Source: a virus
Taxonomy: Duplodnaviria; Heunggongvirae; Uroviricota; Caudoviricetes
Reading direction: 5' to 3' (one strand)
DNA: 40,352 bases
IMG/VR virus record: IMGVR_UViG_2923302340_000006
Coordinates: 1 to 40,352 of that record
Shown here: one piece after another, positions 33,649 through 34,962 of the stretch
How positions within the stretch are numbered: position 1 is the stretch's first letter
Layout of the letters: every line of letters begins with the position of its first letter
Notes under the pieces: generated by a model
Databases searched by the model: none
Told to the model about the DNA's origin: nothing
Seen by the model: only the letters and a program-made list of their open reading frames with translations
Position numbers and translations under genes: made by a program

Positions 33649-33837
33649 TTATTTCCCTAGCACATGAAACAATGTTTGCTTTAATTCCACCCATACAATT
33701 ATGACCACTATAGACAGACAAAAGAAACTGAATGCATTGGCATCACGATCGAAACCTTCTCCGGCACTAAATCCGTAAAAGGTCATAAAAAATATAAAAA
33801 TTGCGCACTTTGCAACGTTTACAAATTTTTTCTTCAC
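33649..33837 (-). CDS. small membrane protein (two predicted TM helices), immI-region cargo
   Basis: 62 aa from GTG at 33837 preceded by RBS AAGGAGG; hydrophobic; divergent from the downstream 322-aa gene. Confidence 0.45.
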   Translation of the reverse strand: MKKKFVNVAKCAIFIFFMTFYGFSAGEGFDRDANAFSFFCLSIVVIIVWVELKQTLFHVLGK

Positions 33838-33899
33838 ACCAACCTCCTTAGTTTTGAGCAGGATACCAGATGATACCGTGTGGTTGGAGTGGCGTGATT

Positions 33900-33993
33900 G
33901 TAATGCAAGCATTTTGTTTTGTTTTTATGCTTGCTTGTATGTGTGTACAGTGCATATAATGCAAGCATACATCACAACAAAGGTGCTTGCATT
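33900..33993 (+). promoter_or_regulatory. promoter with four operator-like repeats
   Basis: -35 TTGCTT (33931..33936), 18-nt spacer, -10 TATAAT (33955..33960); AATGCAAGCAT at 33902 and 33958, inverted copies at about 33927 and 33983. Confidence 0.6.
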
Positions 33994-34962
33994 ATGACTG
34001 AAAAGAAAAGTGGCGAAGGGAAAGCTAAGGGCGGGATCGCTCGCGCAAAGTCGCTGACTAAAGAGCAGCGTTCTGAAATAGCAAAGAAAGCAGCGGCTGC
34101 AAGATGGAAAAGTAAGATTCTCAGGGCAACTCATCGTGGTAACTTTTTAGATGATTTTGGCATTGATGCTGAATGTTATGTACTGGATGACGAGTCGAAA
34201 ACTGTTGTTGTTACGAAAACTGGATTATCTCAGTTGTTAGGGATTGGTGAACATGCCAGGGATTTAGATCAACTGCTTGGCGCTCAGTATATGAGCAAAT
34301 ACCGAGATCTAGAATTGCAGCGAAAAATGGAAAATCCCTATAAATTTCAACTTACTTCGAAGTCTAAAACCGTTCATCAAGCGTTAGGTTATGACATTAC
34401 AGCAATTGTTGATATTGGTAGGGCACTAATAGAAGCCAAAGATAATGACGATCTACCACAATCACGGTTAAAGGCCGCGGCTGCAGCGCAGAGACTTATT
34501 AATGCCTCCGCTAAGGCGGGAATTAAGGGGGTTGCGTATGCGCTTGCTGGTTATCGTCCAGAAGTTCAGGCTGTCATTGACGAGTTCAAAGCGTTTGTTC
34601 GTGAAGAGGCTCGTCAATATGAAAAGGAATTTCCAGATGAGCTATACGAGGAGTGGTATCGACTGTACGGCCTGAATAGGCCAGAGAAAGGACGGCCTAT
34701 TCGTTTTGGGCAGCTAACCAACATGCAGATATACACCCCGCTAGCAAAGAGTAAAGGTAAAATCCTTGAACAGATTCGAGCCAGCCGAGACGAGAACGGA
34801 AAACAATCTGATAAGTTGCATCTGTTCCTTTCTGAAATTGGTGTCAAGGCTTTGCGTCAGCATATCGGTAAGCTTCTTGGTGTCGCAGCGATGAGTGAGA
34901 CAAGAGAAGAATACGAAAAAGGAATAGAAAAGGTTTTCGGAAGAATGAAACCAGAAATCTAA
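33994..34962 (+). CDS. unknown 322-aa protein (N-terminal basic KGG..ARA..LT.EQRSEIAKKAA.ARW motif), immI-region cargo
   Basis: Start at MTEKK (ATG 33994); sits between gp16 and mnt where P22 carries sieA. Confidence 0.6.
   Translation: MTEKKSGEGKAKGGIARAKSLTKEQRSEIAKKAAAARWKSKILRATHRGNFLDDFGIDAECYVLDDESKTVVVTKTGLSQLLGIGEHARDLDQLLGAQYMSKYRDLELQRKMENPYKFQLTSKSKTVHQALGYDITAIVDIGRALIEAKDNDDLPQSRLKAAAAAQRLINASAKAGIKGVAYALAGYRPEVQAVIDEFKAFVREEARQYEKEFPDELYEEWYRLYGLNRPEKGRPIRFGQLTNMQIYTPLAKSKGKILEQIRASRDENGKQSDKLHLFLSEIGVKALRQHIGKLLGVAAMSETREEYEKGIEKVFGRMKPEI

Follow-up and report, generated by a model that had tools for sequence, protein, structure and literature searches.

A four-site operator accompanying the P63C gene and its possible role in autoregulation of an accessory cassette in a P22-like prophage

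The stretch of DNA analysed here, a P22-like (Lederbergvirus) prophage genome of 40,352 nucleotides (IMG/VR record IMGVR_UViG_2923302340_000006; the whole of it is hereafter the window), carries in its variable sieA/immI region a cassette composed of an operator/promoter, a gene for a 322-amino-acid (aa) protein of the P63C family and a terminator (33897–34999, plus strand). The open reading frame (ORF) of this protein, at 33994–34962 on the plus strand, starts with an ATG preceded, 8 nt upstream, by the Shine-Dalgarno sequence AAGGTG. Four copies of a short repeat overlap the promoter of the gene itself, one covering the −35 hexamer, one the −10 hexamer and predicted transcription start, and one the ribosome-binding site, and the same arrangement stands in front of P63C genes in many bacterial phyla. 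With moderate confidence, we propose that this is a self-contained accessory cassette, in which the P63C protein would negatively autoregulate its own gene through the four-site operator.

Results

Sequence reading and a pattern search located an 11-mer, AATGCAAGCAT, in two exact copies at 33902–33912 and 33958–33968, and in two reverse-complement copies at 33927–33937 (two mismatches) and 33983–33993 (one mismatch). The four repeat copies, arranged as two dyads 56 bp apart and bracketing a promoter, which the first-pass annotation of this DNA had described, are thus present at 33902–33993. Taken as a 10-mer, which is nearly palindromic by itself (ATGC-AA-GCAT), the repeat forms four sites in the order + − + −, whose centres are spaced by 24, 32 and 24 bp, so that both direct pairs are separated by 56 bp. 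Site 1 (ATGCAAGCAT, 33903–33912, plus strand) keeps its position in 51 of the 80 genome loci described below. Site 2 (ATGCTTGCTT, matching ATGCTTGCAT at nine of ten positions; 33927–33936, minus strand) holds the −35 hexamer TTGCTT (33931–33936, plus strand), in place of which the homologues have TTGCAT or TTGCAA. An 18-nt spacer separates it from the −10 hexamer TATAAT (33955–33960, plus strand), the last two bases of which are the first two of site 3 (ATGCAAGCAT, 33959–33968, plus strand); site 3 also overlaps the transcription start, predicted from the position of the −10 hexamer to lie at about 33966–33968. The Shine-Dalgarno sequence (33980–33985, plus strand) sits between sites 3 and 4 and overlaps the start of site 4 (GTGCTTGCAT, 9/10; 33983–33992, minus strand), which ends 1 nt before the ATG. 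The cluster is far beyond chance: five overlapping motif matches fall within 100 bp, and none of 300 Markov-simulated windows reached such clustering. No motif copy with one mismatch or fewer was found near any other gene in the 40-kb window, the mnt–arc control region included.

For comparison, a scan of one genome per species gave 80 genome loci with full-length P63C homologues (628 kb in total), spanning Proteobacteria, Acidobacteriota, Myxococcota, Firmicutes, Chloroflexi, Verrucomicrobia and others, most of the homologues being only 43–50% identical to the window protein. We counted 215 exact copies of the 8-mer core (TGCAAGCA or TGCTTGCA) in these loci, of which 191 lie no more than 100 bp upstream of a P63C start codon; chance would give about 19 copies anywhere. 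The complete + − + − set is present at 51 of the 80 loci, at about −86, −62, −31 and −7, in Proteobacteria, Acidobacteriota, Myxococcota, Firmicutes, Abditibacteriaceae and others; across these loci the 10-mers are almost invariant and the spacers unrelated. Nearly all of 80 viral loci with a P63C gene (L084–L163; proteins 61–100% identical to the window's) have the same layout. In the sequence logo, TAnaAT is kept upstream of, and fused to, site 3 only, and TTGCAx is kept inside site 2, with a spacer of 16–18 nt. The homologues have an AGG/GGAG Shine-Dalgarno sequence between sites 3 and 4, in the same place as in the window, and in most of them the ATG overlaps site 4 (ATGCTTGCATG). Because it is conserved across phyla, the layout of the sites shows itself, on comparative grounds, to be functional, and the repressor-like character that the first-pass annotation saw in it is borne out. 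A symmetric divergent promoter formed by sites 2 and 3 was also considered and was rejected, as the mirrored −10 hexamer is not seen in homologues.

Some lineages have variants of the operator. At L010, L063 and L082 it consists of TGTCAAGCA and ATGCTAAGCAT, and in Acidobacteriota the variant is TATACTTGC...GCAAGTATA around a TTGAC −35 hexamer. In this acidobacterial form (L021, L025, L029, L031, L037, L039, L045, L048, L056), the 100 bp upstream of the P63C gene contain a two-site inverted repeat, TATACTTGC(C/T)CGGG ... C(C/T)CGGGCAAGTATA, that flanks the −35 hexamer, and we regard it as a diverged version of the operator.

The assignment of the 322-aa protein to the P63C family, which had been offered only tentatively, proved correct: Pfam PF10546 (P63C) matches at 52.7 bits against a cut-off of 26.1 (E = 6.8e-14; residues 199–286, model positions 3–92 of 93), placing the P63C domain proper, codons 199–286, at 34588–34851 on the plus strand. 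The protein also matches phrog_2384 over its full length (E = 1.7e-104; residues 6–321 against model positions 4–328 of 338), a family of unknown function in PHROG. We found 1682 homologues; all 48 of those aligned match Pfam P63C, and the identical gene in E. coli prophages is named ‘P63C domain-containing protein’ in RefSeq. Near the N-terminus is a basic two-helix motif (KAKGGIARAKSLTKEQRSEIAKKAAAARW; codons 10–38, 34021–34107, plus strand), our proposed operator-binding module, with the consensus GGxARAxxLxxxxRxxIAxxAAxxRW at residues about 10–38 and with G13, G14, R17, R26, A30, R37 and W38 invariant in the homologue alignment. The AlphaFold2 model of the protein (predicted local distance difference test score, pLDDT, 75.5) consists of two short N-terminal helices, an alpha/beta region at about residues 43–135 modelled with high confidence and a helical C-terminal half; a structure search found no credible relative of this model among solved structures.

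P63C, for which p63 of Myxococcus phage Mx8 gave the Pfam family PF10546 its name, is described as a C-terminal module in phage proteins of the KilA-N/Bro-N type. The protein of the window is like other P63C-domain proteins in that its C-terminal residues 199–286 match the Pfam model, and unlike them in having an architecture of about 320 aa conserved over its full length, which includes an N-terminal motif of its own and, in the middle, an alpha/beta region in which sequence comparison detects neither Bro-N nor KilA-N. A Bro-N-like domain in this middle region (about 43–135) had been suggested by our reading of the sequence and by weak structure matches in BFVD, which are enriched for Bro-N, Ant and KilA proteins. 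Sequence profiles do not support it, and we make no such claim: no Pfam match appeared in the 48 members at E up to 10, and hhalign against a small Bro-N alignment gave a probability of 0.2%. Homology of the 322-aa protein to known defence or exclusion proteins was rejected, Pfam giving the P63C domain only. Neither this protein nor orf62, the 62-aa ORF on its upstream side, has a match in PADLOC-DB 2.0 at E of 0.1 or better, or in NCBIfam. Of the profile searches that the first-pass annotation had suggested, those of Pfam, NCBIfam and PADLOC returned nothing for orf62 and only the P63C domain for the 322-aa protein. In the library that could be searched, we found nothing relevant on P63C-domain proteins, PF10546 or Mx8 p63.

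Whether the sites lie in P22-like prophages, in lambdoid ones or in transposons, the P63C gene alone is always with them; Mnt, Arc and C2 are not constant companions. A comparison of close relatives in one clade, with protein bodies 66–96% identical, bears on the N-terminal motif: all five relatives without it (L072, P0242, P0245, P0258, P0281) have no site in the 160 bp upstream, and all four that bear it (P0249, P0276, P0340, P0247) have three to five sites each. This co-loss fits an N-terminal autoregulatory module that would be dispensable when another promoter drives the gene. Two of the P63C genes without motif or sites lie in metagenome contigs (Joint Genome Institute, JGI) related to the Pseudomonas locus L072 (L168, 2001–2993; L169, 2001–2984) and come directly after cI-like (Peptidase_S24) and 78–79-aa genes, in the same orientation as the cI-like gene; these variants look as if they were embedded in an operon.

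Three junctions, which delimit the cassette, emerged when phages and 5426 complete E. coli genomes were compared with the region by megablast. The segment 33600–33896, which comprises the end of the gp16-like gene, orf62 and the leader, occurs without the P63C gene in phiv205-1, and in shorter versions in JEP4 and UPF_BP1; homology to phiv205-1 ends at about 33894–33896, which is the left junction. Phage vB_EcoP-611R6 and many prophages have the segment 33835 to about 34999 but no orf62, and the right junction lies at 34994–34999 (query 1395–1400) in phage 611R6 and in E. coli prophages. From these junctions in phiv205-1 and 611R6, the cassette proper therefore extends over about 33897–34999, and it is passed on as a single mosaic unit. 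At least 80% of 33600–35000 is held by 54 of the 5426 E. coli genomes. Intact cassettes without Mnt, Arc or orf62 are found at 47 viral loci not of P22 type and on the transposon described below, and in Klebsiella-type lambdoid prophages (L164–L167; gene at 5001–5969) the intact cassette stands directly downstream of cI, the place held in lambda by rexAB. These slots, the sieA region and the position downstream of cI, suggest a function that would be expressed from the prophage.

By its distribution and structure the cassette resembles a moron. It is absent from phiv205-1, JEP4, UPF_BP1 and P22 and present in 611R6 and the 54 E. coli genomes, and it has a sigma-70-type promoter and a terminator of its own (33931–33960 and 34967–34990, on consensus evidence). 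Its base composition does not deviate, the GC fraction being 0.41–0.49 in the cassette and 0.41–0.48 in the flanks; deviating composition is common in morons, not obligatory.

Outside phages, the same operator and gene are part of a transposon. An IS1-family transposase gene (Pfam DDE_Tnp_IS1; NCBIfam IS1, 101.9 bits against a cut-off of 100) diverges from the same intergenic region as the P63C gene at 30 of the 80 genome loci. In 11 of 23 loci of this kind, the opposite strand of site 1 provides TTGCAt as the −35 hexamer of a promoter with (C/T)ATAAT, which lies a few bases ahead of the ATG of the transposase gene, and at other transposase loci a TTGACn −35 hexamer abuts site 1. Since site 1 lies within the transposase promoter, we read the operator region of the transposon as a control region shared by the transposase and P63C genes. 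In one Kaistiaceae genome the mobile unit, 2.52 kb long, is present in three 99.9%-identical copies (L064, L065, L067; 2973–5493 each), with 21-bp terminal inverted repeats TCGGTrGTGCrTCAGTTTGAA. The genes of the element, found at about 30 of the loci L009–L083, are the transposase (minus strand), P63C (plus strand) and a small motif-bearing protein (minus strand), the last being a convergent gene of about 80 aa that follows the P63C gene and whose product has the GGxARA...RW motif as its C-terminus (e.g. L012, 4969–5208, minus strand). The small-protein family, with at least 7989 matches, ends in GGxARAxxLtxexRxeIAkKAAxaRW (P0121–P0240) and has no Pfam domain; the name ‘histone H1’, which NCBI sometimes gives to such proteins, was set aside as reflecting composition only. 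At L011, L012, L014, L022, L043, L050, L060, L062 and L083 (−120 to −80 relative to the P63C start), where site 1 appears to serve as the −35 hexamer of the transposase gene, the −10 hexamer of that gene ends only about 7 nt before its ATG, which suggests that the transposase mRNA might be leaderless or nearly so. A literature search for passenger genes of IS1595 found nothing relevant.

Discussion

In the mechanism that we favour, the P63C protein, probably as an oligomer occupying all four sites, would bind them through its basic N-terminal two-helix motif (residues about 10–38). With site 2 supplying the −35 hexamer, site 3 overlapping the −10 hexamer and the start, site 4 covering the ribosome-binding region, and sites 1 and 4 in flanking positions, such binding would hold P63C transcription low and steady, independently of the C2, Mnt and Arc circuits. 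Both that the P63C protein is the binder and that its binding represses are what we infer from the sequence comparisons. The tight repressor control that the first-pass annotation proposed seems reasonable, and the most likely regulator is the P63C protein itself; Mnt and Arc, which were also named there as candidates, are unlikely in that role because the P63C gene takes the sites along into lambdoid prophages, IS elements and distant phyla, where neither Mnt nor Arc is present. The arrangement is like that of lambda CI at OR1–3 and of P22 Mnt/Arc at Omnt/Oarc, in that repeated dyads lie over the regulator's own −35, −10 and start, and flanking auxiliary sites suggest cooperative binding. It is unlike them in the number and regularity of the sites, four in strict + − + − order at 24/32/24 bp, and in the presumed binder, a 322-aa protein with a short basic motif and no match to helix-turn-helix (HTH) or ribbon-helix-helix (RHH) models.

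Several points weigh against autoregulation by the P63C protein. The identity of the regulator is argued from co-occurrence, and the co-loss of motif and sites in five of five against four of four relatives is weaker than it looks because the two are physically adjacent, within about 200 bp, and can be lost together in a single recombination event. For the N-terminal motif, neither Pfam nor PDB gave a match to a known DNA-binding domain, and no HTH or RHH model fits; its modelled helices (residues 11–20 and 23–39) have a low pLDDT of 53–68; and the operator variants (GCAAGTATA; TGTCAAGCA/ATGCTAAGCAT) show no clear co-variation with it. As to the promoter, TTGCTT-18-TATAAT had been called near-consensus, a description that suits the −10 hexamer, which matches at 6/6, but not the −35 hexamer, which is weak (3/6 to TTGACA), and a generic promoter scan of the window did not call the P63C promoter. 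Finally, the repeats form a very stable hairpin in read-through transcripts.

This hairpin leads to an alternative that we consider unlikely, namely that the repeats act as RNA, perhaps besides an operator role. In transcripts of the late operon reading through via gene 16, site 1 would pair with site 4 and site 2 with site 3, and the resulting hairpin would bury the Shine-Dalgarno sequence and AUG as a translational insulator, leaving P63C to be translated only from its own promoter. The RNA 33895–34005 indeed folds at −43.4 kcal/mol (z = −5.15; 0/200 shuffles as stable), with the ribosome-binding site and AUG within the stem, and the RNA that starts at 33967, from the gene's own promoter, is unstructured; moreover, in nearly every homologue site 4 touches the start codon or overlaps it. 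However, the stems do not co-vary but have the same sequence from phylum to phylum, and the bases that flank them are no more complementary than in permuted controls (best z = 1.9, the others about 0). Because the conserved −10 hexamer runs into site 3, the 5′ arms are missing from the gene's own mRNA, and the layout is kept even where a terminator lies directly upstream of site 1 (L004, L006–L008). No Rfam family matches, the sub-threshold miRNA-like hairpins scoring no more than 29 bits against gathering scores of at least 72 bits. Invariant sites, unstructured own mRNA and the lack of an Rfam match therefore favour DNA recognition by a protein; silencing of read-through transcripts is possible as a secondary effect.

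If a protein recognises the sites, it could in principle be one other than the P63C protein. The near-palindromic 10-mers resemble short dimer sites, and the cassette adjoins the immI region with its mnt-like (34978–35217) and arc-like (35306–35479) genes, as would suit operators for Mnt, Arc, C2 or a host transcription factor. We nevertheless hold such operators to be very unlikely: the motif is absent from the mnt–arc control region, which has a palindrome of its own (GGTATAACGGTTATACC), and from the rest of the window; the sites accompany the P63C gene into genomes and phyla without Mnt or Arc; and a host factor would need to bind one and the same 10-mer whether its host belongs to Firmicutes, Acidobacteriota or Proteobacteria. 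If anything, still less probability attaches to the sites being relics of the IS1-family transposon, that is, binding sites of the transposase or the small protein that served the divergent transposase promoter and have no role in the phage copy. Such an origin would agree with the divergent transposase genes, with the use of site 1 in their promoters and with the convergent small protein carrying the same GGxARA...RW motif, but enterobacterial and phage copies that have neither transposase nor small protein (L004–L008, L084–L163) keep all four sites, although their proteins have diverged to 56–72% identity and their spacers have changed freely, and the sites keep their exact alignment with the promoter and start codon of the P63C gene.

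Autoregulation by the P63C protein may be set beside the control of IS1 itself, where InsA represses the IS1 promoter by binding the ends of the element. The likeness is that the four-site region in distant loci also holds the promoter of a divergent IS1-family transposase, which an element-encoded DNA-binding protein would co-repress; the differences are that regulation would fall to a large passenger protein encoded separately, that the sites are internal and not terminal repeats, and that the window copy has no transposase. With phage morons such as HK97 gp15, lambda rexAB and P22 sieA/sieB, the cassette has in common that it is an additional gene equipped with a promoter and a terminator, sitting between genes that are adjacent in related phages, at slots expressed from the prophage. 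Unlike them, it brings its own multi-site operator, occurs also on a transposon outside phages, and has no PADLOC match and no known exclusion or defence role. An ‘autoregulated moron’ fits these properties, what is new about it being the operator, the candidate DNA-binding motif, the unusual cross-phylum invariance and the link to a transposon.

Going further, and with considerable doubt, one may suppose that P63C proteins are an unrecognised class of sequence-specific regulators with a new, short DNA-binding motif at the N-terminus for a nearly invariant 10-bp site in many phyla. They would ancestrally have controlled a divergent IS1-family transposase from a common four-site operator, temperate phages would have captured regulator and operator together as a portable module, and the body of the protein would be a sensor or effector. 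If this were true, the body (the middle region and the P63C domain) might act, for example, against incoming DNA, and the cassette would be a switch or defence gene of a new kind in the prophage, not a passive passenger. P63C-domain proteins are common in prophages, and the operator geometry, together with a candidate DNA-binding motif of about 30 residues and natural variants that have neither motif nor sites, offers a first concrete handle on the family. The comparison also shows a single regulatory cassette moving between settings as different as a transposon of the IS1 family, the immunity regions of lambdoid prophages and the sieA region in P22-like phages.

Genomic setting and the sieA slot

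Upstream of the cassette, orf62 (33649–33837, minus strand; GTG start with the Shine-Dalgarno sequence AAGGAGG 5 nt upstream) encodes a protein with two hydrophobic segments, as judged by eye, which has no Pfam match and matches only phrog_21338 (function unknown), not the SieA-like phrog_7745. It is 97–98% identical in phiv205-1, JEP4 and UPF_BP1, all without the P63C gene, and stands alongside the P63C gene in only 3 of the 80 viral loci; what the first-pass annotation took for a divergent pair is thus better described as two independent modules. The region from which orf62 would be expressed, 33838–33896 on the minus strand, is a sieA-type leader and leftward promoter region common to P22-like phages: 33835–33868 shares 97% identity with the sieA start codon and leader in P22, and a candidate leftward −10 hexamer, TATCAT (33870–33875, minus strand), a weak promoter match, corresponds in position to P_sieA, which the P22 annotation places 31–61 nt upstream of the sieA start codon. 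A leftward promoter with TACAAT abutting site 1 was considered less likely because the leader is also present in phages without the cassette.

In 24 related prophages with leader and cassette, at least nine other ORFs, unrelated to one another, begin at this GTG behind the same leader; the ORFs are 62–164 aa long, mostly with hydrophobic N-termini, and at L126 the ORF at the same GTG is a full-length SieA-like protein (phrog_7745, E = 7e-109). The variable cargo site that had been recognised in the sieA position is confirmed by this variety, and the slot is an exchange point for cargo ORFs that is precise to the start codon. As the same GTG and leader open many unrelated ORFs, we regard orf62 as a separate module, cargo in the sieA slot that would be expressed from the sieA-type leader. 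It is like P22 SieA (PMC10883804) in its position and orientation after gene 16, in its start codon and leader sequence and in being small and hydrophobic, and unlike it in length (62 aa against 164 aa), with no sequence similarity between the two. The set of ORFs in this slot, whose products are small and mostly membrane or secreted proteins, is a ready source of candidate superinfection-exclusion genes.

The genes around the slot and the cassette are in keeping with a P22-like genome. To the left lie the gp20-like (30390–31802) and gp16-like (31799–33631) genes, both on the plus strand. To the right are the mnt-like RHH gene (34978–35217, minus strand) and the arc-like gene (35306–35479, plus strand), both of the Pfam Arc family; the sar antisense RNA of the immI region (35474–35540, minus strand; Rfam RF00262, 70.1 bits against a gathering score of 43); the Ant gene with Bro-N and P22_AR_C domains (35542–36420, plus strand); and the tailspike gene (from 36521, plus strand). 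Between the P63C and mnt-like genes, which converge, is the hairpin terminator AAAACCCACC-GTCA-GGTGGGTTTT with its T run (34967–34990). Its stem contains the stop codon of the mnt-like gene, and the hairpin is flanked by an A run and, on the opposite side, by a T run; therefore, it probably works in both directions and ends both convergent transcription units. In the mnt–arc intergenic region, GGTATAACGGTTATACC forms a perfect 17-bp palindrome at 35271–35287, where P22 has its Mnt operator; its sequence is unlike that of P22, and the difference implies a different immI specificity.

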